Part shown: positions 17,817-54,062 of the stretch, one piece after another
How positions within the stretch are numbered: the stretch's first letter is position 1
Layout: the number at the start of each line of letters is the position of its first letter
NCBI GenBank assembly: GCA_001769835.1
Contig: MEPR01000073.1
Coordinates: forward strand, 1,112 to 65,111
DNA: 64,000 bases
Source of the DNA: Bdellovibrionales bacterium GWB1_55_8
GTDB taxonomy: Bacteria; Bdellovibrionota; UBA1018
Reading direction: 5' to 3'
Notes under the pieces: generated by a model
What the model was told of the DNA's origin: nothing
The model's database searches: none
The model's input: only the letters and a program-made list of their open reading frames with translations
Position numbers and translations under genes: made by a program

Positions 17817-19535
17817 TCAGGTGACTCGTGATTTCTTCGGAATTTCGACAAAGAAGACGCTTCCGCCACCTGGATTGTTCTCCACCCAGATCCTGCCCCG
17901 GTGCATCTCAACAAGCTGTTTGGCGATGGCCAGACCCAGACCGCTTCCCTTCACCCCTTCTTTTCCCACTCGTTCGAAACGAGTGAAGACGCGCTCCTTG
18001 TCCTGATCGGGAATACCCTCGCCCTGGTCTCTGATGGAAATCCGGCAGGCATTTCCCTGATCCTGAACCGCCAGGCCGATCCGTGTTCCTTCCGGACTGT
18101 ACTTGATGGCGTTGGAAATCAGGTTCGAAAAGACGTCAATCAGCATTGGGTTCACTTCGGCGCGGCATTCCCCGACAAAACTTTCGTCGAGAACCATGCC
18201 TTTCGCTTTCAGCTGAGGTTCGAACTCCTGAATCGTCTTTTTCAGAAGCGACCCGAGATTCTCTTCAGCAAACACCAGGTCCGTGGCTTGGGCCGCTCGG
18301 GCATACTTGGCGGCACTTTCACACTGGCTGATGAGGCTTTCAGTCGATTTCGCGATTCTGCCGATGGCCCTGAGCTTAAGGGGATCTTTCTCGATTCGAG
18401 TCAGAAGCTCCGCGGATACCTTGATGGCAGAGGCGGGGTTCATCAGATCGTGCCTGAGAATATCCGTGAACAGATCCTTCAACCGATTCGCTTCCTTGAG
18501 CTTCTCGGTGTTTGCCTTCAAATCCCGTTCGGCTTTCTTTCTCAGGGAAACGTCCGAAAAGACGTACACGGCACCAATCAGTTGGTCATTCCGGCGCATG
18601 GGATAAACCCGGTACTCCACCTCAAGACCGCTGCCATCCTTGCGGAAATAAATTTCATCGTCGACCCGGATGCTTTTCCCTTCCTGGTAGGCACGACAGC
18701 CAAGACAATCCTCGACCGCATAAAATGATCCGTCACGATGCGTGTGGTGAAAGATCGGATGCAGGGTCTTTCCAAGAAGCTCTGAGGCTTCACTGTAACC
18801 GAGCAATTGCAGACTGGCTGGGTTCACGAAGGTGCAACGACCTTCCATATCCACGCCCAGGATCCCTTCGCCCGTCGATTCAAGCAAAAGCCGCGTCTGC
18901 TCCTCGCTTGCCCTGAGCTTCTCTTCCGCTTTCTTTCTTTCGGAAATGTACCGGACAGAAGCGCAATTCAGCTCACGTCCGCCATACTCCACATAGCGCG
19001 CGGTCACCTCAACGGGGACGAGTTCACCGCTTTTAGCGCGATGTACCGTCTCAAAGGTCAGGGTCTTCCGCGTTCGAAGCTCTTTCCAGTGCAAAGGCCA
19101 GCGCTCAGGAGGGAAATTCGGATCCAGCTCTGCGATCCTCATCTGTTCGAGCTCCTCGCGCGTGTATCCCAAGGCGCGCCCCCCTACCTCATTCACATAT
19201 AAAATCCGCCCGGTCTCTCCACTCCAGAAAACCCCATCTCCCGCAAAATCCACCGAGATCTGTGTAAATCGCAGCTTTCGCTCCTCGTTTCTGAGAATCG
19301 CCAGAAGTCCGATCACGACCACCAGCGCCATAGAAACAAAGAGCCTGGGCACCACTTCCACTATGGACGGCTGAAGAAGATGCATCTGGAGACCTGCGCC
19401 TGGTTCCAGAACGGCATGAAGCCAGCTGTCGAAAAACCAGTACAACGCCACGACCCCCAGGCCCACGATCAACGAGCGTCCGAATGCTCTCGGATTCGAG
19501 AGCTCTTGTGATGACCTGAGCGCTGAATGCGGCAT
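17817..19535 (-). CDS. PAS-domain sensor histidine kinase (membrane-anchored)
   Basis: N-terminal TM helices and two PAS-like regions. HisKA H-box (DILRHDLMNPAS) and HATPase_c (N, G1, G2 boxes: NLISNAIKYSPEG, IRDQGEGIP, GSGLGLAIAKQL). Confidence 0.8.
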   Translation of the reverse strand: MPHSALRSSQELSNPRAFGRSLIVGLGVVALYWFFDSWLHAVLEPGAGLQMHLLQPSIVEVVPRLFVSMALVVVIGLLAILRNEERKLRFTQISVDFAGDGVFWSGETGRILYVNEVGGRALGYTREELEQMRIAELDPNFPPERWPLHWKELRTRKTLTFETVHRAKSGELVPVEVTARYVEYGGRELNCASVRYISERKKAEEKLRASEEQTRLLLESTGEGILGVDMEGRCTFVNPASLQLLGYSEASELLGKTLHPIFHHTHRDGSFYAVEDCLGCRAYQEGKSIRVDDEIYFRKDGSGLEVEYRVYPMRRNDQLIGAVYVFSDVSLRKKAERDLKANTEKLKEANRLKDLFTDILRHDLMNPASAIKVSAELLTRIEKDPLKLRAIGRIAKSTESLISQCESAAKYARAAQATDLVFAEENLGSLLKKTIQEFEPQLKAKGMVLDESFVGECRAEVNPMLIDVFSNLISNAIKYSPEGTRIGLAVQDQGNACRISIRDQGEGIPDQDKERVFTRFERVGKEGVKGSGLGLAIAKQLVEMHRGRIWVENNPGGGSVFFVEIPKKSRVT

Positions 19536-19597: not shown

Positions 19598-20314
19598 TTA
19601 AGATTCAGCGAGCAATTCCTGAGCGCCGAGACTGATGCCCTGCAGGGAGAAACTGCGGCGATGAATGGGGCTCGTGCCGAGCTTTCCGAGCGCTGCCGAA
19701 TGTTCGGCCGTGGCGTAGCCTTTGTGTGCTCCGAAGCCGTAGCCAGGATGCAGGGAATCAAGCTCAACCATATGCTGATCGCGCCAGACCTTGGCCACGA
19801 TGGAAGCTGCGGCGATACTCAAGGATTTCAGGTCGCCTTGTATGATGGCTGTCGAATCACAGCTCAGACCGGGCGGTTTGAATTTTCCGTCGACCAGGAC
19901 ATGCGCGGGTTCCAGATTAAGATTTTCCACCGCTCGTTTCATCGCCAGGTGGGATGCATGAAAGATATTAATCTCGTCAATTTCGGCGACGCTTGCGACT
20001 CCCAGCGCCCAGGCACCCGCCCAGGATTGAATTTTTCCTGACAGCTCTTCGCGGAGCGCCGCTCTCACCCGTTTGCTATCGGTGATGTCCTCTATCCAGG
20101 GACAGCTCTTCTTGTCGATCTTCTCAGGCAAAATGACAGCCGCGGCAACGACTGGCCCGGCCAGGCAACCGCGGCCGACCTCGTCCACCCCGGCCACGAC
20201 GATTCGCGGGTGCCCTTGTTTGAGCTCCCACTCCAGAGTGGGGCGCCCCAAAGTAACGCGCCGACGCGGGTGATCCGAAGATCCCCCTGCGTCGGCGCTT
20301 TTTTTCGAACGCAC
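19598..20314 (-). CDS. rnhB: Ribonuclease HII
   Basis: VAGVDEVGRGCLAGPVVAAAVIL catalytic motif. About 238 aa. Confidence 0.9.
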   Translation of the reverse strand: MRSKKSADAGGSSDHPRRRVTLGRPTLEWELKQGHPRIVVAGVDEVGRGCLAGPVVAAAVILPEKIDKKSCPWIEDITDSKRVRAALREELSGKIQSWAGAWALGVASVAEIDEINIFHASHLAMKRAVENLNLEPAHVLVDGKFKPPGLSCDSTAIIQGDLKSLSIAAASIVAKVWRDQHMVELDSLHPGYGFGAHKGYATAEHSAALGKLGTSPIHRRSFSLQGISLGAQELLAES

Positions 20315-20337: not shown

Positions 20338-20769
20338 TTACTTGGTCTTGGCTGCAGGCTTCTGGGCGGCTGTTTTCGCAGCTGCCTTCTGGGCTGCTGA
20401 AGCCTGCGTCTCGACATCACGCTCGATACGAGCGGCTTTTCCTTCGAGTTCGCGGATGTAATAGAGCTTCGCGCGGCGCACTTTACCGGACTGCACCACT
20501 TCGAGCTTGGCTACCTTCGGTGAGGCTTCCAGGAACTTGCGCTCGACGCCTACCCCATGGGAGACCTTGCGAACACAGAAAGACTTGCTCGCGCCCTTAT
20601 TGTAGAGCCCGATCACGGTTCCTTCGAAAATCTGAATACGTTCTTTTTCACCTTCTTTGATGCGAACGTGAACTTTAACGGTATCGCCGGCTTTATATTG
20701 CGGGAAATCCGTGCGCAGCATGGACTTTTCGACCAGCGCGACTTTGTCCGCCATGCCCTTCTGATTCAT
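20338..20769 (-). CDS. rplS: 50S ribosomal protein L19 with Lys/Ala-rich C-terminal tail
   Basis: Aligns with L19 ([26 protein letters not shown]...[14 protein letters not shown]...KLYYIRE). The ORF extends to 20835, but the L19 N-terminus corresponds to [10 protein letters not shown] or MADKV. C-terminal tail: [19 protein letters not shown]. Confidence 0.9.
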
Positions 20770-20894
20770 CTGAAGGCCCTTGGACGTTTTTCTGTACTTC
20801 TGTTTGGTACCTGCCATTTTCAACTCCGATTTCAAAATACTTTGAACATCTGACTGTTGTCACGAATTCGCACTTCAAGCGCTCATTCGCCGGT

Positions 20895-21530
20895 TTACAG
20901 TCCGAACAGCCGATCGAGAATAATCGCGACAGCGGAACGAACAGAGAGGTGATTATAACCTCCATTACCTTCAGGCCCGTACACCGGAGCCAGAATCCGG
21001 TGCACCTCGGGATAAAAGGTATCCGATACTCCCCAGCCGGTGCCAAAAACCAGTACGACTGGTTTAGGGTTCCCGCCTGAGTGCCTCCGCTCTTCGAGTT
21101 CGCGCCGGTAATCGGCGTATGAAATCGACTTCGGAAGCGGCCTTGCATCGGTCAGCACCACTTCAGGGTCCTGGCCGTGCTTGGCACGAATTGCGGCTTT
21201 CACATCTTCAAACGTACTCACCAGCCGGACCAGTGAAACCGCCTCAACGCGATCCGGATGCTGCTTCCTGGACTCTTCCGTGCGCCAATGCGCCAGGATT
21301 CGCCCTACGAGTTCGTGCTGATCGAGAATCGGAGTGACCAGGAAATATCCCTGAGCCCCGTAGGTCCGAGCCGAACGTGAGATATCGTGGATATCCATGT
21401 TCGTAACGGCCGTGGTCACGATCGCGCCCTTACGGTTCACAATAGGATGATGCAGTAACACGACGTAAACCGGCAAAGAGCGCAAAGACACGAGGCTTAG
21501 GGAAATACCACCGGCCCGTCGATTTTGCAC
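20895..21530 (-). CDS. Putative SPOUT-superfamily RNA methyltransferase
   Basis: 211 aa. Glycine-rich SAM-binding-like loop VVLVFGTGWGVSD near the C-terminus. Located immediately upstream of rplS on the same strand. Family assignment is tentative. Confidence 0.4.
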   Translation of the reverse strand: MQNRRAGGISLSLVSLRSLPVYVVLLHHPIVNRKGAIVTTAVTNMDIHDISRSARTYGAQGYFLVTPILDQHELVGRILAHWRTEESRKQHPDRVEAVSLVRLVSTFEDVKAAIRAKHGQDPEVVLTDARPLPKSISYADYRRELEERRHSGGNPKPVVLVFGTGWGVSDTFYPEVHRILAPVYGPEGNGGYNHLSVRSAVAIILDRLFGL

Positions 21531-21659
21531 GGGTATTTACGATTCATCACACGGAACAGCCGCATGGCGTCATTTTTAATCTCTCGGGAGCCCCTCGACA
21601 CCCCACTCTAAAATCATTATCTTTTATACCAATCAGCTTAAACCCAGGGTGTCTGCCTC

Positions 21660-22823
21660 ATGAACTTCAAAAAAATCGCTTCCAGGAACGTATTAGCCGC
21701 CTCTTTATTCTCCCTGATCGCGCTCATGATGTCTGCTTCGGCCTATGCCGACGACGCCTGGGTGCTTCCCGGCGGGGTTTTCCGGCTGATCACGGGCGCC
21801 ACCTTCGTCAACAGCTCTCAGGAGTTCGATGGCAGCGGGGAAAAACACGAACTCGGGCCTGAGCTATCGCAGAAAGTACTTCAGACCGGTTTGAGTCTGG
21901 GACTTCCCTGGAGCACGTTGAATCCTGAAATCCACATGAAGACCGCTATTTTCAGGCAGGATTTCGCGATCGAATACGGACTAACAGATCTCATGAGCCT
22001 ATCCGTGCAGCTCCCGCTTTATTTCAATGCGGATGTCACGGCCACGTCCAACGAGGATATGAAAACCGCCCTAACCACCTTAAATTCAGCAATGGGCCCT
22101 GGCAAAGTAGGAGAGCTTTTTCAGAAACGGTCTCAGAACGGAAAAAAATCCGGAACCCTGGGAGACGTTCTCCTGGGCGGGAAATACCAGTTCCTGAACT
22201 CAGGATCCTCACCCACGAGTAACGATGCAGAGACGCTCAGGGCCGCAGCCGCCCTCGGCTTGAAGTTACCGACCGGCAGCACGGCAAGCCCGAACACGAA
22301 TGACATCTCGACCACCACCGCCTCTGACACGCAGTCCTGGATCTTGGGCGCAAGGACCTACTGGGATTATCAGTTCACGCGCAGTTTTTACCTGAACCTC
22401 TACACGGAGCACGAGTATCGCCTCCCCGGCAGCCGGAAATACCTGTACACCAACGAACTCACGGGCGACTACAGCGTCCTCGACACGACCTTTAAACCGG
22501 GCTTCTATAATCACCTGGAGCTCGACTTCGCGTTTTCCCCGGAGCTCATGACCGATCTGAGTCTTGAAACAGGAATTCGATTCACAGGGGACTACACCGC
22601 CGCAGGCAAATACACCAAAGCCCCTGAAGCATTTTCTTCGATCGCCGGCGAAACAACAAAAGGCTCCGCCGAGTACAACGTAATCCCTTATCTCGGCGTC
22701 TTCTACACGGGGTCACCGCTTCCACTTAAACTGAAAGTTGTTTATTATCAGCCCGCAGCAGGCGAAAACACCTATGTACTGAGCGGGCTTTCAACGGTGC
22801 TCCAGGCCTATATGAAATTCTGA
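21660..22823 (+). CDS. Putative outer-membrane beta-barrel protein (hypothetical)
   Basis: Signal peptide (MNFKKIASRNVLAASLFSLIALMMSASAYA). Amphipathic beta-strand-rich composition. C-terminal ...AYMKF (terminal Phe, typical of OMPs). Stop is 9 nt before the HK start. Confidence 0.45.
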   Translation: MNFKKIASRNVLAASLFSLIALMMSASAYADDAWVLPGGVFRLITGATFVNSSQEFDGSGEKHELGPELSQKVLQTGLSLGLPWSTLNPEIHMKTAIFRQDFAIEYGLTDLMSLSVQLPLYFNADVTATSNEDMKTALTTLNSAMGPGKVGELFQKRSQNGKKSGTLGDVLLGGKYQFLNSGSSPTSNDAETLRAAAALGLKLPTGSTASPNTNDISTTTASDTQSWILGARTYWDYQFTRSFYLNLYTEHEYRLPGSRKYLYTNELTGDYSVLDTTFKPGFYNHLELDFAFSPELMTDLSLETGIRFTGDYTAAGKYTKAPEAFSSIAGETTKGSAEYNVIPYLGVFYTGSPLPLKLKVVYYQPAAGENTYVLSGLSTVLQAYMKF

Positions 22824-22834
22824 TAAGGGCGATC

Positions 22835-24787
22835 ATGCGAAAAAAGCATTTTCTTCGAAGAATTCTGCTTTTAATCGCATTTTGCACAACACCCGTTTCA
22901 GCTGCAGAGCTCGCAGCATCGCCGACCGCCTTGCCTCTTTCGCCCGAGGTCGACAGCATCTCATTGGATGCCCTTGCCGAAAGCTGGGTGGAGTCAGACC
23001 TGAATCTAAAGGAACCGATCACGGCAGAGACGTTTCTGCCTTCGTCCGCTCCGCAGGGGCTTCCTTTACCCAGGATCGGCGGAACGCGGTTCAGCTACTC
23101 GAATTCAAACATCTGGATTCGCTTTCAGGTCGAAAACAGGAACCACACGGATACCGAGTGGGATCTCGTGGTTCGCCCGCCTCACATCACGTTCATCGAG
23201 TTCTATCAGTTCGACGCAGAATCCAAGCGGCGCCTGTCCCAATCCCATTTTTCACTTAAACAGGTGACAGCGGGCGACAACGGTCCGAATTTCCCCTTAC
23301 ACCTGGCACAAGGAAAAGCTTCAATCATCATTCTCAAGCTGGAAGCCGCGAGCGACCTCGGTTTCCAGCTCGTCACGCGAAAAGCGAACTTCAATCAGGT
23401 CCTTCGCAAGCGCATGGCCCATGGCATCTACTATGGCATCGCGATCGCCATGATTCTTTACAACCTGTTCATCTGGTTTTCGATTCGTGAACGACCCTAT
23501 ATCTACTACATCTTTTTCCTTCTATCTTTCGCGCTCACAGTCGGGATACTCGATGGCTGGGTTCCCCTCGGACGTTATTTGACTTTCACCGCCCTCATGA
23601 CGGTGTTCTGGGCCTCGCTCTTCACTCGAAATCTTCTTGAGACCAGGACCCGCCTTCCGCTTGCGGATACCCTCTTTCGCGCAATCACGGTTCTCAGCGG
23701 GACGATTTCATTTGTGATCCTGCTGCCGTTTTATCCGAAAATAGCGCCTCCCTTTGAATACCTGGGCGACATACTCATCGTCCTTTACATCCTGACAGCG
23801 CTTCTCACCTCGGCCTGGCTCGCGAAAAATGGCGTTCGAGCCGCGAAGTTCCTGACATTGGCCTGGTCGATGATGCTGCTCCTGATCGCGATGTACTTTC
23901 TGGCCATTTACGGAATGATCACGCCGCCCGTGGCAGCACCGGAGCTGGTCCAGATCGGGTCCGCACTGGAAATGATCCTTCTCTCGTTCGCGCTCGCCGA
24001 CAAAATCAAGACTCTGCGCCTGGAAAACGCAATTGCGAATGAAAAAGCGCAGAAATCAGAGCAGCTGAAGAAGCTCGTGCACATCATCTGTCACGATCTC
24101 GCGAACCCGCTCACCGCTATTCTCAACAATCTCGCCCTCCGAAAAAGGAAAGGCGAAAAAGGGTGGGAACCGATAGAAAGAGCAGCCAACCACCAGAAGG
24201 AAATCTTGGAACAGATCAGGGATCTGGAAGCCATCGAGTCAGGGAAACTCGTATTCAACATGCAACCGGTTTCCGTCCGCGACACCCTGGAAGAAATGCG
24301 TTCATCGTTCAGCAGCCAGCTCGAGGACAAAAATGTCGCCCTGTACATTCAATATGAGTTCACCACCGAAAACCCCTTCGTACTCTGCGATCCGGTAGCA
24401 TTTCACCACACGATTCTGAGCAATCTGATCTCCAATGCCATCAAGTTCTCATTCAAGGACAGCAAGATCACGGTGCTGGGGCGAGAAACGGACACTGAAA
24501 TTGAACTTTGCGTCGAAGACCGCGGCATAGGAATTCCAAAACACATCCGCGCGGTCCTGTTTTCCACGACAGCCATCACCTCACGCCTCGGCACCTTCGG
24601 CGAAAAAGGCACCGGCTTCGGAATGCCGCTGGTGCATTCCGTACTGAAGGCGATGAACGGCTCGATTGAAGTCGAGAGCCGATGCGCGGAAGAGGGTTAC
24701 AAGTGCTCCGGCACGAAGGTCACGGTGAGACTCCAAAAAGTGCAGGATATCGCGCTCGCAAATCTCCTCACTCAGGAAGTCATCTGA
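22835..24787 (+). CDS. 7TMR-DISM-type sensor histidine kinase (extracellular DISM domain + 7TM + HisKA/HATPase)
   Basis: Signal peptide and a ~180-aa periplasmic domain, followed by seven hydrophobic helices. H-box ICHDLANPLTAI. HATPase_c motifs (LISNAIKFS, EDRGIGIP, GTGFGMPL). Confidence 0.75.
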   Translation: MRKKHFLRRILLLIAFCTTPVSAAELAASPTALPLSPEVDSISLDALAESWVESDLNLKEPITAETFLPSSAPQGLPLPRIGGTRFSYSNSNIWIRFQVENRNHTDTEWDLVVRPPHITFIEFYQFDAESKRRLSQSHFSLKQVTAGDNGPNFPLHLAQGKASIIILKLEAASDLGFQLVTRKANFNQVLRKRMAHGIYYGIAIAMILYNLFIWFSIRERPYIYYIFFLLSFALTVGILDGWVPLGRYLTFTALMTVFWASLFTRNLLETRTRLPLADTLFRAITVLSGTISFVILLPFYPKIAPPFEYLGDILIVLYILTALLTSAWLAKNGVRAAKFLTLAWSMMLLLIAMYFLAIYGMITPPVAAPELVQIGSALEMILLSFALADKIKTLRLENAIANEKAQKSEQLKKLVHIICHDLANPLTAILNNLALRKRKGEKGWEPIERAANHQKEILEQIRDLEAIESGKLVFNMQPVSVRDTLEEMRSSFSSQLEDKNVALYIQYEFTTENPFVLCDPVAFHHTILSNLISNAIKFSFKDSKITVLGRETDTEIELCVEDRGIGIPKHIRAVLFSTTAITSRLGTFGEKGTGFGMPLVHSVLKAMNGSIEVESRCAEEGYKCSGTKVTVRLQKVQDIALANLLTQEVI

Positions 24788-24814
24788 AAAAAAAGGCCGC
24801 ACGTGCGTGCGGCC
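24787..24814. terminator. Perfect 20-nt palindrome (GGCCGCACGTGCGTGCGGCC) preceded by an A8 run; bidirectional terminator-like hairpin
   Basis: Seen directly at 24795-24814 with an A-run at 24787-24794. The T-run is on the minus strand. On the plus strand it immediately follows the HK stop codon. Confidence 0.5.
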
Positions 24815-25022
24815 TCATGTCAAACATGCTCTTTTGGTTTGCTGTCTGAACCAAAACACGCAAAACCATAACTCATCGACTTTACTCGCGTTTAAACTTA
24901 TTCAATTGATTTTCACTAAAACGGTGAATATGACAAAAATGTTAAAGGCGCTGCTCTTTAGGGCCGATGCGGAGTTCAGTGGATCAATCCTGATCTTGAA
25001 CTTTTTGACTCTCAAGGAGCGC
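24815..25022 (+). promoter_or_regulatory. AT-rich (~38% GC) leader/promoter region upstream of pilus operon; contains inverted repeat TTCAC-N7-GTGAA
   Basis: Marked GC drop relative to flanks (~58%). Inverted repeat at 24912-24928. AAGGAG Shine-Dalgarno ahead of the pilin ATG at 25023. Confidence 0.35.
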
Positions 25023-25508
25023 ATGATGAAAAAAATTCTGACACTCAGCATGGCCTCACTGATTCTGGTGATGTCGTTCTCGACTAAACAGGCAAACGCC
25101 GCAAGCACTACAGCAGATGCGTTACAAACAGTGACGGCCGCGATTTCGATAGCGAAAGTATCGGATTTGGATTTCGGCACAGGAGCACAAGGCGATGGTG
25201 CGAAAGCGGTTGCACCAGGTGCCGCGGAAAACGCGGAAAACGCGAGTTTTACAGTGACCGGCGAAGCAAGTCAGGCTTATACGATTTCGCTGCCTGCTGA
25301 CGGCTCCGTGGTGATGAGCACAGGGGGCGGTGGGACTGCCGATACCGAAATCGGAGTCGAGGGTTTTACGTCTTTTCCGGATACGACCGGCACGCTGGGT
25401 GCCGGCGGCACTGAAACCCTTTACGTCGGTGCCACTCGCGACGCTCTTCGCGCCACCCAAACGCCAGGTAGCTACAGCGGCGTCTTCACCGTTACCGTGG
25501 TTTACTAA
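25023..25508 (+). CDS. Secreted pilin subunit, spore-coat-U (SCPU)/CsuA/B-like, paralogue 1
   Basis: Signal peptide MMKKILTLSMASLILVMSFSTKQANA. Shares conserved blocks with two paralogues: DLDFG, NASFTVTG, SYTISLP, LYVGATRD, PGSYSGVFTVTVVY. Internal ATG with Shine-Dalgarno is preferred over the ORF start at 24807. Confidence 0.65.
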   Translation: MMKKILTLSMASLILVMSFSTKQANAASTTADALQTVTAAISIAKVSDLDFGTGAQGDGAKAVAPGAAENAENASFTVTGEASQAYTISLPADGSVVMSTGGGGTADTEIGVEGFTSFPDTTGTLGAGGTETLYVGATRDALRATQTPGSYSGVFTVTVVY

Positions 25509-25601
25509 ACTGATTTCGATAATCATACGCTCAAAGAGCCAGTGCCTCTGGGAAGGAACTGGCTCTTGTTTTTTCCAACATCGTCAAGCCATCATATCCG
25601 G

Positions 25602-26420
25602 ATGAGCACCTGCAAAAATTCGATCTACTGCTGTTTAGTCGGCGTCATGAGCCTTTTCGCGCTCACGCAACCGTGTTCTGCGAACCTTCAGGTATTCCCG
25701 ACACGAGTCGTTCTCACCGATCAGAAGAAAAACGGCTCGCTTTCCATGCGCCACATCGGACCCAAGATGGAGCGGTACCGAATCTCAGCGGTGTTTTACC
25801 AGATGAAGCCTGATGGAAGCATGTCGCTTCTGAAGGACGGACGGTCCGAGCCCACATCGCTGGTCCAACATCTGAGATTCAGTCCTCGTGAAGTCGTTCT
25901 TCAGCCCGGAACGGAACAGGTACTGCGACTCATGCTTCATCCGCGGAAGCGCCTGCCTGATGGGGATTATCGCGCTCACATCTATTTCGAACCCGCGGAT
26001 TCCGCTGAACAGGAGGGCACCGCTCCCTCTGCTGCAAACGGGGCCATGCAGCTCCGAGCGAAAATTGCGGTCGCAATCCCCGTGATCCTGAGGGGCAATG
26101 CTACTGCCAAACCGGCGATCGAGAATCTTCAACTTGTCAGAAAGCCAAAAGCCGCTCCTGAGTTCACCGCGAATCTGGTGCGTATCGGGTCAGGATTCCT
26201 GTTTGGCGACCTCCACTTGTTTTTCACTCCTGCGGGTGGCGCAGAAGAGTCCGTCGGAACCATTCTCGGGCTCTCCTCTTACATCGATTCACGAACCATC
26301 CGGTTTCCGGTTTCGGCCGATGCCGACAAATTACGGAATGGAAAGTTTCGGGTGGAATTCCGTTCTCCCACCGCTGAAGGAGGGGGCGTTCAGGCGCACT
26401 CCGAAATCAGTCTCCTTTAA
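25602..26420 (+). CDS. Periplasmic pilus chaperone (PapD/CsuC-like immunoglobulin-fold chaperone)
   Basis: Signal peptide, then LQVFPTRVVLTD...G (beta-strand A/G region typical of CU chaperones). About 270 aa. Lies between pilin genes and the usher. The start is taken at MSTCK (25602). Confidence 0.55.
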   Translation: MSTCKNSIYCCLVGVMSLFALTQPCSANLQVFPTRVVLTDQKKNGSLSMRHIGPKMERYRISAVFYQMKPDGSMSLLKDGRSEPTSLVQHLRFSPREVVLQPGTEQVLRLMLHPRKRLPDGDYRAHIYFEPADSAEQEGTAPSAANGAMQLRAKIAVAIPVILRGNATAKPAIENLQLVRKPKAAPEFTANLVRIGSGFLFGDLHLFFTPAGGAEESVGTILGLSSYIDSRTIRFPVSADADKLRNGKFRVEFRSPTAEGGGVQAHSEISLL

Positions 26421-26586
26421 TTGACCCCCGGAAAAACGTCCTGCAGGCGCTAGTTATAAACCATTGAATCAAAACAGAAATCTTCTTCACAGACAGTTTT
26501 AAATTCAACGATTTGACGCAATGCATTAGCTTGCTAAACTAATTCTACAGACGAAGCTCGTCTCTGACCGTCGTGTGGAACGTTGA

Positions 26587-27093
26587 ATGAAACTTGTTTA
26601 TAAAAACTTTTCTCATCGCGTAAACGCCGCAGTGCCATTCCTGATGCTGGCATTCGCCTCGTCGCATATGCCAGCAGCCTACTCAGCCTCGAGCGTCGCC
26701 ACCTGCACACAGACTGTGACACCAGCGATTTCAATTCAGAACATCTCGGGATTGGACTTCGGCTCGGCGTCCGCCGGGACCCAGGCTCTGCTTATTGACT
26801 CAGGCACTGAGGAAGACGCCAGGAACGCCAGCTTCATTGTAAGCGGCGAACCACGGCGCTCATACTCCATCACGCTTCCGGAAGATGGCGTCGTTGAAAT
26901 GACATTGAGTGAGGCAAAAGGGCCTCAGTCGCAAATCGGTGTAAATGGATTTCGCTCCTATCCGTCTGGCGCGGGAATCATTGGAAGCGAAGGGAATCAG
27001 CTGCTGCTTGTCGGAGCCAGCCGTGATCCCTTGGACAAGGATCAACTACCGGGGTTTTACAGCGGCTCCTTCACCGTCACCGTTGTTTACTGA
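26587..27093 (+). CDS. Secreted pilin subunit, SCPU/CsuA/B-like, paralogue 2
   Basis: Signal peptide. Blocks GLDFGS, NASFIVSG, SYSITLP, LLVGASRD, PGFYSGSFTVTVVY shared with paralogues 1 and 3. Confidence 0.65.
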   Translation: MKLVYKNFSHRVNAAVPFLMLAFASSHMPAAYSASSVATCTQTVTPAISIQNISGLDFGSASAGTQALLIDSGTEEDARNASFIVSGEPRRSYSITLPEDGVVEMTLSEAKGPQSQIGVNGFRSYPSGAGIIGSEGNQLLLVGASRDPLDKDQLPGFYSGSFTVTVVY

Positions 27094-27133
27094 GCTGACA
27101 GCGGTCAACTAAGCCGTTAGCATTCGATACAGA

Positions 27134-29803
27134 GTGTTGAATAGATGGACGAAGGCTGTTGGCATTGGCAGCTCGCGGTTAAAGCGCACCTGGATAGGTG
27201 CGCTGATCGTCCTTGTCTGTGCATTCTGCAGACCACCCTGGCAAGACGCTTCTGCCGGTCACTCTCCTATCGCTGAAGAAAATGAACGTATTTTCGAGGT
27301 CATTCTCAATGATGGAACCCCACTGAGCGAGGGGATTCTAGGCTACCAGGTGTCCGGAGGCTGGCTCCTTCCGATCGGAGAGCTTTCCGTCGCGCTGGGT
27401 TTTGGCATCAATGTATCGCCATCACTGGGTCTCGCGGAAGGATTCATTATCACTGAGGAGCGCCGGTTGCGAATCGACCTCAAGGCTTGTACCGCTGAGA
27501 TCCACGGCCAAGTGCGTTCATTTCGCGCTCCCGACGGAAGCTGTAACGGCGCCTACACCACGGCGGAAGATCTTCTGATCGAAGCGCAACACTGGTCGCA
27601 GTGGTTTCCTCTGGAGCTTGTCGTTGATTCTTTCCGCAGCCGAATCATTATCACTCCGAAGGAAACCCTTCCCATTCAACGAAAAAAGATGCGCGCGGAT
27701 CTTCCAGGGAATGTTCGCGCAGGTTCAGCGAGCGATCCGGGATATCCCGAAATTCCGGACCGCGTCTCGCCGCTTTCCGGACCGTTCCTGGATCAACAGC
27801 TCTCTTTGCAGCGCGTCGCCAACAAAGCCAACACGGCAGACGATTTTCAAAGCGATACCGTCCTTTCAAGTGAGATTCTGGGCTGGGAAACTCGCGCGTT
27901 TGCCTCATTGGGCAAGTCAGCATCCAAGTCAGGTCTTCGACACGGCAGATTGAGCATGGCCCAGAAGCGTGCGGACGGAGGACTGCTGGGGCCAATGGAT
28001 GCGACCAGAATAGAATTGCTTGATGTATCGCTTCCACAGCTATCCCTCATATCGCCCACACAGGAAGGGCGCGGACTCGTGATTTCCAACTACCCGCTGG
28101 ATTACGTCGATCTTTTCGGAACCAGAGACTTCCAGGGGAATGCACTGCCCGGATGGGAGGTCGAACTCTACCAGAACAACGTGCTGTTGAGCCGGCAGGA
28201 AATCGGCGAAAACGGCCGCTACGACTTCCGGGACATTCCTCTTTACTATGGATCCAATCAGTTTCGCCTGGAGTTCCTCGGGCCTCAGGGCCAGGTGCGA
28301 ACGGAGTACCGGAACCTGCGAATCGACACCTCGCACGTGAAGCCGGATCAACGCAATTACGTGATAGCGTTGGGCGTGCGCGATTTGGCGCCCCATTACT
28401 CCGCCCGCTTCGAGCAGAGCATCGCTGACGCCATATCGGTTTCCGCGGGCTTGGCACAGTTGCAGCTGACGGAATTAGGCCGGCAGGATCAGTTTGCGCA
28501 GCTGGGAGTGACGGGATTCGCGGAAAACCTGCTATTATCCAGCTCCGCGGCGCTGTCCAAAAGCGGTGGAAACGCGCTTCAGCTGAAGTCGCAGTTTCCC
28601 TACCGGCGAGCATCGCTATCTATTCGCTACACGCGTCTGAATAACTATTCGAGCGAACTGTTCAACTCGCGTCCGGGCGTAAATCAGATTGATGAGACCC
28701 TCGGAGACATTTCCTTCGTGGTTCCGGTGAATCCTGGCGTGGGAACAACCTGGGAAATCGCGCGAAAACGCTATGCGGAAGACATCTCATCGTTGTCCCT
28801 GCGGAACAGAACTTCCACGAACATCGGAAGGACCTACCTCAACCATGAATTGAGTTATAACGGCGGAACCGCTTCGACCGATTCAAGCCTTGCAGGCCGC
28901 CTCGAAGCCACACAGCTTGTCAGGCGTCAACAACTCAGGCTCGGACTGAACTATACTTCCACGGGACTTCAATTCACCGACGCTGAAATTCAAATGCGAC
29001 ACCGGAATTTCGCCTCATCGGCTCAGCTCCGTTATTACTTCGATGGGAGCGCGGCGCAGCTTCACGCAAGCGTCTCCAGGATTTTCCCGGGCGCGACCCT
29101 GGGAGGACAGCTTTCGGCGGATGCAACCGGTGCCTACAGCGTCGCAGGCCTGGTGTCTTTCAGCATTGCACGAGATCCGCTGGCCCGTCGCTGGCAAATC
29201 CACCCCGAACCCCAGGCGGAATTCGGCGCCGCTTCCATACGGACTTTCATCGATAACAACCGCAATGGTGTGATGGATGGCACAGATCGCCCGGCCCCGG
29301 AAATCAGGCTGCGTTTGCACCAGCGGAATGAGATGCTCACCACGGACCAGCAAGGCCTCGCGTTCCTTGCGAGACTTCAGCCGCATACGCCCATGGATCT
29401 GTCCATTGATCAGGACTCACTCGTGAACCCGCTCATTCGCTCAGCTTCAGACGGTGTTCGTCTCATCCCCAAAGCAGGAAAAACAACTGAGATCTGGTGG
29501 CCTCTGATCACGAACGGCGAGATCGACGGCGTCGTGGAACTGAAGAATGGAAATGAATTGAATTTACTGAACGGCATGACAGTTCATCTGATCGATTCGC
29601 GAGGTACGGTTCTCATGAAAACGCGGACTGATCGCGGAGGGACTTTCTTTTTCAGTTCGATTCCACCAGGCACTTACCAAGTGACTCCTTCCTTCACGGA
29701 ACTCTTTGAGAAACAACTCCATTCGAAACCATTGCAACGTCAGGTCGTCATCCCGTCCGAAGGCGAAATTGTCAGCGGCACGGATTTCCTTTTAGAGCGC
29801 TGA
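27134..29803 (+). CDS. Outer-membrane pilus usher (CsuD/PapC-like, archaic chaperone-usher class)
   Basis: 889 aa, beta-rich, N-terminal signal-like segment. Position and size fit an usher in a pilin-chaperone-pilin-usher-pilin arrangement. No specific motif was verified. Confidence 0.5.
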   Translation: MLNRWTKAVGIGSSRLKRTWIGALIVLVCAFCRPPWQDASAGHSPIAEENERIFEVILNDGTPLSEGILGYQVSGGWLLPIGELSVALGFGINVSPSLGLAEGFIITEERRLRIDLKACTAEIHGQVRSFRAPDGSCNGAYTTAEDLLIEAQHWSQWFPLELVVDSFRSRIIITPKETLPIQRKKMRADLPGNVRAGSASDPGYPEIPDRVSPLSGPFLDQQLSLQRVANKANTADDFQSDTVLSSEILGWETRAFASLGKSASKSGLRHGRLSMAQKRADGGLLGPMDATRIELLDVSLPQLSLISPTQEGRGLVISNYPLDYVDLFGTRDFQGNALPGWEVELYQNNVLLSRQEIGENGRYDFRDIPLYYGSNQFRLEFLGPQGQVRTEYRNLRIDTSHVKPDQRNYVIALGVRDLAPHYSARFEQSIADAISVSAGLAQLQLTELGRQDQFAQLGVTGFAENLLLSSSAALSKSGGNALQLKSQFPYRRASLSIRYTRLNNYSSELFNSRPGVNQIDETLGDISFVVPVNPGVGTTWEIARKRYAEDISSLSLRNRTSTNIGRTYLNHELSYNGGTASTDSSLAGRLEATQLVRRQQLRLGLNYTSTGLQFTDAEIQMRHRNFASSAQLRYYFDGSAAQLHASVSRIFPGATLGGQLSADATGAYSVAGLVSFSIARDPLARRWQIHPEPQAEFGAASIRTFIDNNRNGVMDGTDRPAPEIRLRLHQRNEMLTTDQQGLAFLARLQPHTPMDLSIDQDSLVNPLIRSASDGVRLIPKAGKTTEIWWPLITNGEIDGVVELKNGNELNLLNGMTVHLIDSRGTVLMKTRTDRGGTFFFSSIPPGTYQVTPSFTELFEKQLHSKPLQRQVVIPSEGEIVSGTDFLLER

Positions 29804-29823
29804 AAATCCTGTAAACTCCACCT

Positions 29824-30246
29824 ATGATTTCGCGGCTTCCGTTCATTCTCGGTCTGCTACTGACGGACCTGGCGGTTGCAGGGTCTATCAAGGTGAGCCA
29901 GGTTTCCGACCTGCGGTTCGGAGTGGCACCGCAGGGGGCTGCCGCGGTCACGATTCCAGCAGGAACTTCTGAAACCGCGTCGAACGCCAGCTTTCGCGTG
30001 ACAGGCAATGCCAACCAATCATTCACGATCGCCATTCCAACAGGAAATATCCAGATGGAAGGCCCGTTGCCTAAGAAGCTAAATCAAATCGACGTTCATT
30101 CTTTTTCGTCGTTTCCATCGGGCACAGGCGTTCTGGATCCCTCCGGAGCGGCAATGGTCTATGTGGGCGCGACGCGAACGGCCCTGGCGGTGAACCTGCC
30201 GCCGGGCTCCTATGACGGAGCGTTTTCGCTCACCGTGGTCTACTGA
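29824..30246 (+). CDS. Secreted pilin subunit, SCPU/CsuA/B-like, paralogue 3
   Basis: Signal peptide. [42 protein letters not shown]. Stop overlaps the trmD stop convergently by 7 nt. Confidence 0.6.
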   Translation: MISRLPFILGLLLTDLAVAGSIKVSQVSDLRFGVAPQGAAAVTIPAGTSETASNASFRVTGNANQSFTIAIPTGNIQMEGPLPKKLNQIDVHSFSSFPSGTGVLDPSGAAMVYVGATRTALAVNLPPGSYDGAFSLTVVY

Positions 30247-31055
30247 TTTTTCAGTCGCGCGGTTTTTCCTAACAAATCCGGTCGTTTTTTTTCGGTGCGT
30301 TCGCGCATTTTTTCCTCACGCCACCGCGCAATGGCGCCGTGGTCGCCGCCCAGGAGCACCTCAGGAACTTCGCGTCCCTCGTAATTGCGCGGGCGTGTGT
30401 ACTGCGGGTATTTCAGGAGACCCTTTTCAAAGGTCTCTTCACTCAAGGATTTTTCATTGCCGACGACGCCAGGAATCAAGCGGGTCACGACATCGATCAA
30501 AACCATTGCCGGCAACTCGCCGCCCGTCAGGACGTAGTCACCAATCGAGATCTCGCGATCGACACACATCTCGATGAAGCGCTCGTCGACGCCTTCGTAG
30601 TGGCCGCAAACCAACACCAGATCATCGTAGGTCGCCAGCTCCTTCGCCAAGCTCTGAGTGAGCGGCGTCCCTTGTGGAGAAAGGAAGATGGTCGTGCTCC
30701 GCGCCCCTTCGGGAATTTTTCGGCGTGCCTCTTTCCATGCATCATGAAGCACATCCGCTTTCATGAGCATGCCTTCGCCGCCCCCGTACGGGGTATCGTC
30801 GACAGTCCGATGCTTGTCTTTGGAAAAATCGCGGATCTGCGTAAACTGGAAATCGACCAATCCCTTTTCGCGAGCCTTGCCGACAAGACTGGCCGAGAGG
30901 ACTGAGTCAAAGCTCTCAGGAAAAAGCGTCAGAATGTGAAAGCCGAGACGGGAATCGTTATTCGACGATTTCGAGAACGGTGCGCTTTCTGAGTTTGGTA
31001 GATGCGCCATTGAGTATCGTCCGAACCGCCCGGGCCGTCCTGCCCTGCTTACCAA
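30240..31055 (-). CDS. trmD: tRNA (guanine37-N1)-methyltransferase TrmD
   Basis: [12 protein letters not shown]... N-terminal signature and SPOUT knot motifs ([32 protein letters not shown]). The start is ambiguous: the ORF Met at 31055 or MAHLP at 31010. Either overlaps the KH gene end. Confidence 0.9.
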
Positions 31056-31287
31056 TGATTTTGCCGAGATCTTCTTTGGCGACCTTCAGTTCAATGACCG
31101 TCGTGTTTTCACCCGCGATCTCGTTGACATGAACCTGATCCGGAACATCCACCAGCATGCGGGCCATATACTCGATCATTTTCGAGAGCTCGCTCAACTG
31201 TTTTGGTGTCCCTGCCTCGCCTGGATTATTTCCCGTATTATTTCCCATGATAGACATCGCCCCACGTCCCTCCACATGTCTCTGCAC
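30958..31287 (-). CDS. KH-domain RNA-binding protein (UPF0109/YlqC-like)
   Basis: C-terminal ~75 aa ([21 protein letters not shown]...[18 protein letters not shown]) match KH-type YlqC. The N-terminal 36 aa may be an extension or a mis-start. Confidence 0.7.
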
Positions 31288-31402
31288 AACTTGGCACTGC
31301 TCAACGAGTATGCCGCAAGATCAGCATAACACACCACTCCGGTCCGCTCTTCACGGCTGCCGGCGTGAAAGCCCAACATTGTAAGTTCGGGCGCCGATGT
31401 CT

Positions 31403-31717
31403 TTATTTTGCGAGGGTTTTTACCAATTGTCCAACCGTTTGTGACAACTGGGCGCCCTTGGCCTGCCAAGCTTTCAAAGCTTCAGCATTGATTTCGATCT
31501 TCTCGGCCTGGGTCTTGGCTTTCGGGTAATAGTGCCCGAGCTTCTCAAGGTATTCACCATCGCGCTTGCTCTGGGAGTCAACAGCGACGATCAGATACTG
31601 GGGGTGCTTCTTCGCGCCTTGTCGCGAAAGACGAATGCTAACAGCCATTTGAAACGATCCTTTCAAAAACTTAATTAAGTGATCCTCGTGATTAGCAAGT
31701 CCCAATCGGACCGTCAA
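31403..31717 (-). CDS. rpsP: 30S ribosomal protein S16
   Basis: MAVSIRLSRQGAKKHPQYLIVAVDSQSKRDG...HYYP, canonical S16. Confidence 0.9.
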   Translation of the reverse strand: MTVRLGLANHEDHLIKFLKGSFQMAVSIRLSRQGAKKHPQYLIVAVDSQSKRDGEYLEKLGHYYPKAKTQAEKIEINAEALKAWQAKGAQLSQTVGQLVKTLAK

Positions 31718-32112
31718 CTGGATTCAAGCAGCTCACCCGCCAAAGTGGTCCCATCCAGGAAGCTTTTGAGTTCCTGGGTCAGACGACTGCGGTCCTGTTC
31801 GACGGAACGCCAGCCCGGCTTCACCAAGCGCCCTAAAGCGTTCTTGGGTACCCCGTGGACCGGATTTGACAGGCTGGTAAGTAAAATGACCGGAATAGAT
31901 TGCTGCTCAAACTGTTCCAGAAGTTCCGCCCCCGATTCCCCGGGAAGGATTTCATCCAGAAGGATCAAATCCGGCCGGCGCCTGGAAATTTCGACCCGGG
32001 CGTCCCAGCCGTTCTTGGCCAATCCCGAAACACGAACCCCCGGGATACCGTTAAAAACGAGTTCCAGTAACCGCAACATCGGATCAACATCTTCGATGAT
32101 CAATACGTCCAT
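31714..32112 (-). CDS. Single-domain response regulator (CheY-like receiver)
   Basis: 132 aa. Acidic pocket EDVD, phospho-acceptor LILLDEILPG, T/S (LLTS) and K (VPK) positions. Stop overlaps the rpsP start by 4 nt. Confidence 0.75.
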   Translation of the reverse strand: MDVLIIEDVDPMLRLLELVFNGIPGVRVSGLAKNGWDARVEISRRRPDLILLDEILPGESGAELLEQFEQQSIPVILLTSLSNPVHGVPKNALGRLVKPGWRSVEQDRSRLTQELKSFLDGTTLAGELLESS

Positions 32113-34864: not shown

Positions 34865-35087
34865 TACGTTCTCACCCCGCCGGCTGCTTTATCACTGCAG
34901 CATGGCCGACGCAACATCAGAGAACTACACCGGAATTTCTTAAGGTTTTAAACTGACCGGCAGGCGTCTCATGGGCTTGACCGGCCTTCTAATTCCTGAT
35001 AGAAACGGTCGGTCTTTCAACTCCCCTCGCAGGAGACAGCCCCGAGTGAAACTTTCGCGTATCCAGCACCAGATCAAAAATTCGGCA

Positions 35088-38000
35088 ATGAGCGCTCTTC
35101 TGCTGCTCTGGTTGATTCCGGCTGCCGAAGCTTCCACCCTTCTTATCCCCAAGTCCCAACAGGAGAATCTGCAGGCTCCCGCAATCGACCTCGTGTACAA
35201 GGGCCAACCTCTTGACCGAGACCAGGTGGTGGACCTGATCGACTCCGGACAGGACATCAGCCGGATCGATCCCGCTCCGAGTGACGTCTGGACGCCAGCC
35301 GCACTCCCCGCCTCGGACGGCTCCTCTCAAAACTATCCGCCTGAAGAGGTGGTATTCGACTTTGACTCCGACATCACCGCTTCGCGGGGAATGTTTCGCG
35401 CGCGGCTCCTGGGTCCGGGCGCGGTTCCTTTTCGTCTCGTCCTCAGCCTCGACTCGCATGCCGCACTGATGCGCTCGGCCCTGCTGCGGCGCCTAGGTTA
35501 CACAGTCGACGCCCCGAAAGCGTATCGCTCGCTGACGGTGCGATTCCGCGACATAGCCACCCGAGAACGCTTTCTCGACCAGCTGAGTGATCGCACTCTG
35601 ACCGCCCGCTCGCGTTGGATTGAAGGATCGCTTTCGCCTTCTGACCCTCAGGTGACCTTGAGGGACGCTGTCCTTGAACCGGGACGAATCCAAATTCCTC
35701 CCTATCACTGGGGCGTCGTATCCGGAGCGCATCTGAAAGGCCGCAGGGTGCTTCGCGCTCTGATCGTGCCGTTTGTACTTCTGGATGTCCCTGAAAGCAT
35801 CAATCTCTACGCCTGGGAGCCGGGAAAGGAACTCAGCAAGCACGTTTCGCTGACGCATCCCTACGCCGATTCATTCTCCGAGACGACTTTCGATGATGCT
35901 CGTTGGATCGTCAGAAAAATTGCCGAACTGAAGCCGGAGGACTTAAAAACGATCGTGGCCGCCGGCCGGTATCCGGCGCCGGTCACCACTCTCATTCTCG
36001 AAAAACTCACGGCCCGGCGAAACAACCTGGTACGACTTTTCGAACTCAGGGGCGAGATTCCAAAAGCGATGCGCGAATTCGCATACCGAACCGATATCCA
36101 TTTTCCGCCAGACGTCCTGAAAGGAAAACTGGTTCGCGAAACTTATGAAGGCTACGCGCTTCGCTTCACCTATGGCGACCCCGAGTCTCCGCTCCGAAAA
36201 GACGAACTGGGCCGGTATCTCAGGCTGGAACTCATCAGCGGCGCGATCCGCGCCCTGACCCAGAAAGTGAATGAAGCGCTGGAGGCGCGCGGACCGGCGG
36301 ACATCGCGAAAAAACATTCGGAAGACCTTCAGAAGGAATTCCTCGATCATATCCAAAATAAACCGAACCAGCCCCTGTCGAAGCCTGTCGGCTTCTGGGG
36401 AGGAATGACGGGCGGACTTCGCGTCAACGCGAGCCGAAACGTCGTCACCGGAACTTATTACGGAAGCGATTCGAAACTGCAGCTGGTCGACAATATCTCA
36501 GCCCAGGCCACGGTCGGTTACTTCATGAGCAAGGACGGAGTACCGAAAGCAGTGGTGGGCGGCTCTGGAAATCTTGTCATTCAACGAAACTACATTCACG
36601 TAAGACCGGTTCCGAATCTGAAAACCGCGCTCACCACGAATTGGAGCTGGCTCTGGGTGCCCGGCTTCATGAAAAAGCTCGGAAAAATGATCGAACCTGA
36701 CGCTGCGAAGCCCGTCTCGAGCCTGGAGCCGGACCAGATTTCGAATAATTTGGATGCGTTTCTCGAGGAATTGAAGGAAGGCGAGCTCTTCACCATCACG
36801 GACTCCGTGGGGCTTGGCGCCTCGGTTTCCGCCACCATTCCTCTTCTGGCGCTTCTGGGTGTCGACCCGCTCGGAGTAGGTGGAACCTTCACCATCGGTC
36901 CAAGCGCCCAGGGCACGATCTTGAGGCGCACAACGTTCGTGCGCACCGCCGATGGTCTTCAGGTTTACCTCCAGCACGCGCACACCGAGAGCCTTTCAGC
37001 GAATTTCGATTTCAGCTTCTGGATGAATGTCCTGAAAACCTCGATCGGCGCGCAGCGTGGCGCAAGTTCCACGCGCGCTTACCTGCTGGGGACAAAGCCC
37101 AAAGGTGCCGACGAACAACGTCGCATGGCCATTGCGCTTTCCGCCCTATTGAAAGCCAATAACAGCGAAATCCTCGAGGATACCTACGGCAAATACGTCC
37201 TCAAACACGAGATGCCATCGAAGAGCCGCAAAGCGAAATTTCTCAGGTGGCAATGGTCCGGGGTCGAGGAAAGTCATCGTGTCGAGATCCAGCCTCCTGA
37301 GGACACGCAGGTGCCGCCGCGGTACCAGGCCAGGGATCATAAAAGAAAGTTGTTTTCACATCGCATCCTGCGGCGCTCGGGCACGAACGATTACAACTTC
37401 CTTGCGCAGGTGCTGGAGGGTTTCTTCCCGGGACATGGCCTCGAGTCAGCCGGAGCGGCCGGTGACAACCCCTCAAGCTCCTTCCTCGGTAAAAGCCGCT
37501 GGACGAATATCACCACGGAAGCCGAAACCACGGCAGGCCGTGAAACCGACCCCGTTTCACTGATCGAATATCATTGGCAAGGCTGGCTGCTCTCGAAAGC
37601 AAAGCTCTTTTCAATATTCGACCGCATCGAGGCCCGACTTGCGAGCCTGGACCCCGAACTCAGAGTGATTGACCGGGATGCGTTTCAGGATCTGAAGCAG
37701 CTACAGATGTATGACATTCAATCCACCCTTCTTATTTACGAGAAAGGCGTACGCCGAATCCGGGATGACATCCTGGGTGCCAGGAAAAAATCCGATCGCG
37801 CTCTTTTCGCCCGTCTTGTTGAAATCGAGGGACGTGAGAGTTTTCGCCGGTATTGCCTGTCCGAGCTTCAGCGAACCCATAGCGGTGAAGGCAGTGATCC
37901 GTATGCTCCCGAACGCGAGCTTGAGGAGATCATGAACGGCGGAGGGTGGTTCTACGCCTGCCTGAAACCCTGGATGTCGCGTGCGATGAGCCTGGCCAGG

Positions 38001-52836: not shown

Positions 52837-52847
52837 CGCGAGGACGA

Positions 52848-53486: not shown

Positions 53487-53560
53487 GATGAAGGTATCGC
53501 ATCCTTGGGTATGTTTTGTTTTTTATTGAAGAATTTGTCGCCAAGATTGAGCCCAGGCGC

Positions 53561-53953: not shown

Positions 53954-54062
53954 GGAGCAGATCCTCTTTGAAAAGGTCTACCCAACCGGGCGGTTTTTAT
54001 CAAGTTAGTGAGTTTCATGCGTGGACAGAGAGCCCTGCTCTGGGCTATCACGGTTGGCTTAC

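Follow-up and report, generated by a model that had tools for sequence, protein, structure and literature searches.

Does an 8.7-kb block of accessory genes lying between trmD and rplS break a core operon, and if so, how does the cell continue to express ribosomal protein L19? The question is raised by a 64,000-nucleotide stretch of contig MEPR01000073.1 from Bdellovibrionales bacterium GWB1_55_8 (positions 1,112 to 65,111 of the contig, hereafter the window), in which rpsP, trmD and rplS retain the same order and orientation, as assigned by Pfam and NCBIfam, with trmD and rplS lying 9.4 kb apart. An upstream unit, rpsP-KH-trmD, is split from a downstream unit, methyltransferase-rplS-rnhB, by seven genes on the plus strand, which include a putative chaperone-usher pilus cluster. 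An original prediction made from the sequence alone had proposed that a plus-strand accessory block separates trmD from rplS; Pfam, NCBIfam and the public gene calls confirm this, although the block holds seven genes, not the six counted there.

Comparison with relatives strongly favours, by parsimony, a derived insertion of the block (21531-30239) in the window's own lineage. The explanation that we hold with good confidence is that native-like genes of composite origin came to rest at a tolerant boundary that already had its own promoter. An ancestral string, rpsP-KH-trmD-Tm1570 methyltransferase-rplS-rnhB-yraN, from which rimM had already been lost, would have received the 8.7 kb in reverse orientation, directly after the trmD stop codon and directly ahead of the promoter that serves the methyltransferase-rplS unit. 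Expression of rplS would then have continued from one or more pre-existing promoters, with only read-through from trmD lost, and the block itself would most likely have been built up, perhaps in two or more steps, as accessory genes were rearranged or joined by illegitimate recombination.

Gene order around trmD and rplS in relatives

Relatives were collected by a TrmD scan of GTDB with one genome per species, which yielded three true relatives, all metagenome-assembled genomes (MAGs) of Oligoflexia or Bacteriovoracaceae, and by a metagenome scan with the window's PF09936 methyltransferase, which yielded 80 loci onto which the window proteins were mapped by tblastn. The window's lineage was defined as the 35 loci with at least 54% methyltransferase identity, comprising the three GTDB MAGs and 32 metagenome loci. 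As far as their sequence reaches, these loci share the order rpsP-KH-trmD-PF09936-rplS-rnhB(-yraN-STAS-rsmI). trmD stands immediately upstream of PF09936-rplS in 20 of the 26 loci informative for the trmD-PF09936 junction, with gaps of 86-288 nt (median trmD-to-methyltransferase gap 143 nt over all 22 pairs, two interrupted pairs included), and tblastn of the window proteins found homologues of the module genes at this site in none of 83 loci. More distant lineages (41-49% identity) still place trmD beside PF09936, and some fuse the two; those sampled are contiguous wherever both genes are present, except L061, which has no trmD upstream. Conservation of the interrupted arrangement throughout the lineage, which the original prediction had named as the observation that would speak against an insertion, is therefore the reverse of what the relatives show.

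The same comparison revises the status of the SPOUT methyltransferase, which the original prediction had counted among the genes filling the gap. The PF09936 gene sits between trmD and rplS in most loci that cover both flanks, close and distant alike. TrmD and Tm1570 genes are known in bacteria as separate, adjacent, overlapping or fused genes (PMC11187310), and at L039 (3825-5102) and other distant loci the two form a single open reading frame (ORF) of 425 aa with the double-knot architecture described in that work. Because relatives keep the PF09936 gene adjoining trmD and distant lineages fuse the pair, gene order identifies it as an ancestral member of the string rather than as cargo.

The absence of rimM can likewise be separated from the insertion. 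Neither the 64-kb window nor any locus of a close relative gave a match to a RimM hidden Markov model built from 25 distant-locus ORFs, and in the window KH and trmD have no rimM between them: KH overlaps the start of trmD by ~50 nt (median -49 nt in 19 relatives). In distant lineages, KH and trmD stand ~570 nt apart, with an ORF between them that is RimM by Pfam (for example at L039). The original prediction was thus right that rimM is missing from the locus; its tie to the insertion does not stand, as close relatives lack rimM there with or without an insertion, which indicates a lineage-wide loss from this locus on the evidence of gene content. Neither the loss of rimM nor the presence of the SPOUT gene is connected to the insertion. 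At the KH/trmD overlap, a conserved N-terminal extension of TrmD (MAHLPNSE...) was considered as proof of coding and rejected, as it overlaps the conserved 3' end of KH in another frame; the coding status of this extension (window 30958-31010) is ambiguous.

The boundary between trmD and the methyltransferase gene is broken by unrelated genes in six other relatives, whereas the rpsP-KH, KH-trmD and methyltransferase-rplS junctions are broken in none. The six are as follows.

L025, 1036-2588: PilT-like ATPase and a small ORF at the boundary
L031, 8520-9974: response regulator with an HD domain at the boundary
L027, 749-4394: at least 4.4 kb at the boundary, including a PAS-Hpt kinase
L021: CBS protein at the boundary
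L016 and L035: no trmD upstream of the methyltransferase gene

As part of the explanation that we favour, the site would be a permissive boundary between two transcription units rather than the interior of an obligatory operon. The unrelated insertions at L025, L031 and L027 also consist mostly of pilus or signalling genes.

The gene map of the window's own locus draws on the listed ORFs, on Pfam and NCBIfam matches and on the scaffold's public gene calls.

31714-32112, minus: response regulator
31403-31648, minus: rpsP (ribosomal protein S16), first gene of the upstream unit (Pfam Ribosomal_S16, E 8.5e-21; gene call)
30958-31248, minus: KH-domain (KhpA-like) gene (Pfam KH_KhpA-B, E 1e-22)
30240-31010, minus: trmD, right edge of the insertion (NCBIfam TrmD equivalog, E 7e-93)
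29824-30246, plus: DUF4402 subunit c, putative minor or tip pilin (Pfam DUF4402, E 1e-11; alignment)
27134-29803, plus: predicted outer-membrane usher, 889 aa, highly divergent (AlphaFold2 and Foldseek)
26587-27093, plus: DUF4402 subunit b (Pfam DUF4402, E 2.6e-11; alignment)
25602-26420, plus: predicted PapD-like periplasmic chaperone, 272 aa, divergent (AlphaFold2 and Foldseek)
25023-25508, plus: DUF4402 subunit a, probable major pilin (Pfam DUF4402, E 1.1e-12; alignment)
24783-24816, minus: intrinsic-terminator hairpin and U-tract (terminator scan; folding energy -23.1 kcal/mol, z -5.7)
22835-24787, plus: 7TMR-DISM sensor histidine kinase (Pfam 7TMR-DISM_7TM, E 2.5e-32; 7TMR-DISMED2, HisKA, HATPase_c)
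21660-22823, plus: 387-aa secreted protein (signal peptide and C-terminal Phe in the sequence)
21502-21530, minus: conserved promoter-like element before the methyltransferase gene, marking the left-hand limit of ancestral DNA
20895-21491, minus: PF09936 (Tm1570-family SPOUT) RNA methyltransferase (Pfam Methyltrn_RNA_4, E 8.8e-66, profile positions 2-182 of 182)
20338-20817, minus: rplS (L19) (Pfam Ribosomal_L19, E 2.8e-43)
19598-20314, minus: rnhB (Pfam RNase_HII, E 8.8e-41)
17817-19535, minus: PAS-domain histidine kinase, between rnhB and yraN

The start of rplS lies at 20817 rather than at 20769, where the original prediction had placed it, as judged by a conserved N-terminal extension and a GGAG ribosome-binding site. 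This extension of L19, MA(T/G)TK(T/Q)KYR(R/K)TSKG with the GGAG site upstream (window 20770-20817, minus), is conserved in the lineage. Past rnhB, the minus strand continues with the PAS histidine kinase, yraN and rsmI. rnhB adjoins yraN in 11 of the 12 relatives that have both genes (median gap 110 nt), and the PAS histidine kinase at 17817-19535 is a second lineage-specific insertion in the same conserved string. Beyond the response regulator, two very large ORFs of 1108 and 1129 aa lie next to each other on the plus strand (34971-41683); the first matches no family, and the second carries a subtilase (Peptidase_S8) domain.

Promoter-like elements and expression across the site

DNA preceding the methyltransferase gene was aligned with the codons of the conserved VYVVLLH motif as anchor, and the alignment places the methyltransferase start at a GTG (21491 in the window). 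An invariant TGnTA stands 18-20 nt (19 in most) before this conserved GTG in all 23 distinct alignable relatives, and in 21 of the 23, as read from the printed alignment, an nTG(C/A) -35 hexamer lies 17 +/- 1 nt upstream of a TAnnnn -10 hexamer; the remaining intergenic DNA around the element is unalignable among relatives. In the window, the element comprises a -35 hexamer GTGCAA (21530-21525), an extended -10 TG (21510-21509) and a -10 hexamer TATTTC (21507-21502). This architecture is that of a sigma-70 promoter with an extended -10, and its conservation suggests that the element is active. Because the GTG comes only ~10 nt after the -10 hexamer, with no Shine-Dalgarno sequence ahead of it, the methyltransferase mRNA would be nearly leaderless, and leaderless translation may be its mode of initiation.

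Since the element occupies the same offset in every alignable relative, uninterrupted ones included, it appears from the alignment to be older than the insertion, and the string was probably divided into two transcription units beforehand. The stop codon of trmD itself falls next to or within the element in several relatives. Ahead of rplS there is a further -35-like hexamer, (G/A)TG(T/A)CA, which occurs 46-81 nt before the ATG in 17 of 31 distinct sequences, the window included, compared with a mean of 3.5 and a maximum of 9 in a shuffled control. In the window, this is GTGACA (20863-20858), followed 18 nt on by TATTTT, the whole spanning 20834-20863 on the minus strand. Many relatives with the rplS hexamer share a gCTAGG motif just downstream of it.

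The original prediction had expected that rplS would need a promoter of its own after the insertion, a need that these pre-existing, lineage-wide promoter-like elements would already meet. With a conserved promoter already in place on the rplS side of the insertion point, rplS was probably little affected. The event can therefore be viewed as ordinary genome flux in which no obligatory operon was broken, and the combination of a conserved promoter with a nearly leaderless GTG start provides a testable model for L19 expression in a lineage with a reorganised trmD operon.

The block is arranged head-to-head with the methyltransferase gene across a divergent region (21492-21659), which contains, besides the conserved element, a consensus-level plus-strand promoter match at 21595-21623 in a promoter scan. 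At its other end, it meets trmD tail-to-tail, and the stop codon of trmD overlaps that of the last DUF4402 gene in a 7-nt convergent overlap. Between the kinase gene and the first pilin gene, a hairpin (24816-24783) with a 10-bp GC-rich stem and a U8 tail is predicted, from its orientation, to stop minus-strand antisense transcription arriving from trmD, 5.4 kb upstream, and not transcription of the plus-strand genes.

The inserted genes

The original prediction had labelled five of the inserted genes as a chaperone-usher pilus cluster, and the label proved right, although structure prediction was the only approach able to confirm it. The 889-aa protein has no match to the usher family (PF00577) at E <= 10 in Pfam and none in NCBIfam, its sole Pfam match being a C-terminal CarboxypepD_reg/SdrD_B domain. 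Similarly, the 272-aa protein has no PapD match at E <= 10 in Pfam and no NCBIfam match, and weak PapD_N matches occur in 12 of 27 of its homologues. AlphaFold2 models of both proteins were built with family alignments. The 889-aa model, with a predicted local distance difference test score (pLDDT) of 88, contains an N-terminal domain, a large barrel with a plug-like insert and two C-terminal sandwiches, and Foldseek aligns it over its full length with FimD (3rfz_B, E 3.8e-30) and PapC (7lhg_C, E 1.6e-26) at 11-12% identity. The 272-aa model (pLDDT 90.6) matches CfaA (6k73_B, E 3.5e-11) and CsuC (5d6h_A, E 5.4e-11), and nearly all of its 50 listed Foldseek matches are pilus chaperones (CfaA, CsuC, Caf1M, FimC, PapD). 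The models thus show the 889-aa protein as a FimD/PapC-like usher and the 272-aa protein as a two-domain PapD-like chaperone of the CfaA/CsuC kind.

The three DUF4402 proteins are paralogues at 40-44% identity. In each, a signal peptide precedes a mature domain of ~125 aa and the C-terminus carries a conserved GxYxGxFxVTVxY motif; their alignment also reveals an alternating hydrophobic stretch at the N-terminus. Subunit a begins at the ATG at 25023, preceded by an AAGGAG ribosome-binding site. A DUF4402 profile found no solved pilin in the PDB, and PDB sequence searches with the usher, chaperone, DUF4402 and 387-aa families returned nothing relevant beyond the C-terminal transthyretin-like domain. 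Because their genes are invariably linked to those of the chaperone and the usher, the DUF4402 proteins are probable pilins. After Sec-dependent export, the subunits would be kept by the chaperone until they polymerise through the usher to form a fibre on the cell surface.

Taken together, the cluster appears from its predicted folds to be a divergent variant of the chaperone-usher system, nearest in fold to the archaic and alternate classes. Its usher family is large in metagenomes and, by profile searches, unannotated: among 50%-identity clusters, the family profile recovers no fewer than 150 full-length representatives at E < 1e-239 and 5,337 at E <= 1e-30, some of the weaker matches covering only the C-terminal domain. 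A literature search found no mention of DUF4402 in the library that it covered, and a search for chaperone-usher systems together with Bdellovibrio found nothing relevant. DUF4402, a domain of unknown function, can be assigned to the probable subunits of a very divergent chaperone-usher system, an assignment that would help to annotate surface fibres of Bdellovibrionota and of environmental bacteria more widely. We regard this cryptic DUF4402-type system, along with the conserved near-leaderless promoter of the Tm1570-rplS unit, as the main value of the locus. A broader proposal, which we advance tentatively and with slightly more doubt than belief, is that the cassette of DUF4402, 270-aa and 880-aa genes defines a distinct, unannotated chaperone-usher clade abundant in environmental bacteria, with a DUF4402 pilin and with an usher and a chaperone invisible to curated models, and that the trmD-Tm1570 boundary is a recurrent landing site for pilus and signalling genes, protected by the conserved near-leaderless promoter.

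The remaining two genes are neighbours with no established link to the pilus. The 387-aa protein, a putative outer-membrane beta-barrel, has no Pfam, NCBIfam or PDB match, and its 15 homologues gave one weak Phenol_MetA_deg match. The other gene encodes the 7TMR-DISM kinase.

Where these parts occur elsewhere bears on whether they arrived as a single module, as the original prediction had treated them. Cassettes that combine DUF4402 genes with a 270-aa and an 880-aa gene, at 34-51% identity, are found in at least five unrelated contexts, none near trmD, while the 387-aa protein has homologues (~50% identity) whose genes stand alone in other, different contexts. The kinase and the 387-aa protein stand beside the cassette in none of the nine other cassette loci. 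The closest homologues of every part come from Bdellovibrionota, including those of the usher-like (34-42% identity) and chaperone-like (40-45%) proteins. Because the parts occur separately in other genomes, the block has the look of native-like accessory genes brought together, not of one mobile element.

Competing explanations and comparison with known systems

The principal competing account, a single horizontally acquired island or mobile element that carried all seven genes into the operon, gains from the uniform orientation of those genes, opposite to that of the flanks, and from cassettes elsewhere that lie near toxin-antitoxin and DUF4143 genes, which hints at mobility. Composition also lends it some support. 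As the original prediction had stated for the pilin-gene region and its leader, GC content is low here, the block standing at 0.540 compared with 0.560 for the window (8.7-kb windows: standard deviation 0.011, minimum 0.538), and its tetranucleotide distance falls in the top ~6%. The effect is weak, however: the block is 2 points below the window mean, GC of 0.47-0.49 is confined to two intergenic leaders, and a codon profile across the genes places both per-gene GC at third codon positions (GC3, 0.55-0.66) and codon-usage distance within the window spread (0.637 +/- 0.042). The most deviant tetranucleotide region of the window is 52500-55500, which encodes the core GTPase TypA/BipA and an aldo-keto reductase and so owes its deviation to a core gene, not to foreign DNA; because this core region deviates more, the mild tetranucleotide deviation of the block says little. 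Pfam identified no integrase, recombinase or transposase among the seven genes or their flanks, no direct or inverted repeats were found linking the two junctions, and the window contains no tRNA gene and no Rfam RNA family. Given these observations, the separate occurrence of the cassette, the kinase and the 387-aa gene in other genomes, and the Bdellovibrionota affinity of every part, we consider a single island unlikely, although one acquisition from a related donor could account for the same affinities.

The version advanced by the original prediction, in which a co-transcribed core operon was truly split and a new rplS promoter evolved afterwards, draws on the operon of E. coli and A. baumannii discussed below and on those relatives whose trmD stop lies within or next to the element, where read-through likely contributes to expression. 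It is difficult to reconcile with a promoter-like element at the same offset in 23 of 23 alignable relatives, with or without an insertion, or with a boundary that tolerates unrelated insertions in six others, and we judge it to be slightly less likely again than an island. An ancestral interrupted arrangement, with the module lost in relatives, is favoured by the lack of a strong composition anomaly and by nothing else; it would require many independent, precise deletions in the 20 contiguous close relatives and in distant lineages with TrmD-Tm1570 fusions, while the interrupted relatives hold unrelated genes, making it very improbable. Least credible of all is a chimera of unrelated contigs, to which the source, a metagenome assembly, might have pointed. 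A second, independent assembly from the Joint Genome Institute (JGI), which differs at 2 positions in 12.5 kb (99.98% identity), extends across the left junction, and three contig records contain the right junction with the same neighbouring genes, which together rule out an assembly artefact; moreover, the two flanks, which agree in orientation, together make up a single conserved string.

Insertion of composite cargo at a tolerant boundary thus accounts best for these data, and several observations nevertheless weigh against it. The block sits at the low end of the window's GC range with its tetranucleotide distance in the upper tail, and a foreign donor of similar GC could have supplied it. 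No relative was found above ~81% methyltransferase or 67% TrmD identity, which limits both the dating of the insertion and the choice between one step and several. In addition, the left-junction DNA (21531-21659) has no homology to the intergenic DNA of relatives, so the left breakpoint can be placed no more closely than between the -35 element and the first codon of the 387-aa gene. The window's own -35 hexamer, GTGCAA, matches the consensus at 3 of 6 positions, too few for a simple consensus promoter scan, and the conserved motif could alternatively be a translational or RNA-level element. Finally, the terminator scan found no terminator at the convergent junction of trmD and the pilus genes, so some interference in expression is possible.

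Several features of the locus can be set beside characterised systems. RetS and LadS of Pseudomonas are 7TMR-DISM sensors, and the window kinase shares with them a periplasmic 7TMR-DISMED2, the 7TM domain and a histidine-kinase core; it differs in having no receiver domain, and its pairing with pilus genes recurs at no other cassette locus.

The pilus genes follow the operon logic of the archaic (Csu, Acinetobacter) and alternate (CFA/I) pili, with subunits followed by chaperone and then usher. The chaperone model is closest to CfaA and CsuC, and the subunits are likewise small proteins that have a signal peptide and conserve an aromatic motif at the C-terminus. In contrast to those systems, the subunits here belong to DUF4402 rather than to the SCPU/Csu or class-5 pilins, the chaperone has 12-14% sequence identity to solved chaperones, and a two-domain tip adhesin is not evident. 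The predicted usher resembles FimD and PapC throughout its fold, from the N-terminal domain through the plugged barrel to the two C-terminal beta-sandwich domains; it departs from them in its 11-12% identity, in matching no usher model and in a last domain that scores as CarboxypepD_reg/SdrD_B.

The rpsP-rimM-trmD-rplS genes form a single operon in E. coli and A. baumannii (PMC10483419), and with this operon the locus shares the order and orientation of rpsP, trmD and rplS, which in relatives form a compact string. It differs in that rimM is absent across the lineage and KH abuts trmD, in the PF09936 methyltransferase gene placed between trmD and rplS with an internal promoter-like element before it, and in the 8.7 kb inserted ahead of that gene, by which the genes are no longer contiguous. 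The conserved internal element, as seen in the alignments, argues against a single obligatory transcript. As for the pairing of TrmD with Tm1570 (PMC11187310), relatives of the window keep the two genes adjacent and distant loci such as L039 fuse them, whereas in the window the pair is split by 8.7 kb of opposite-strand genes, and the PF09936 gene of this lineage has its own promoter-like element and, judged by its upstream sequence, a nearly leaderless GTG start.

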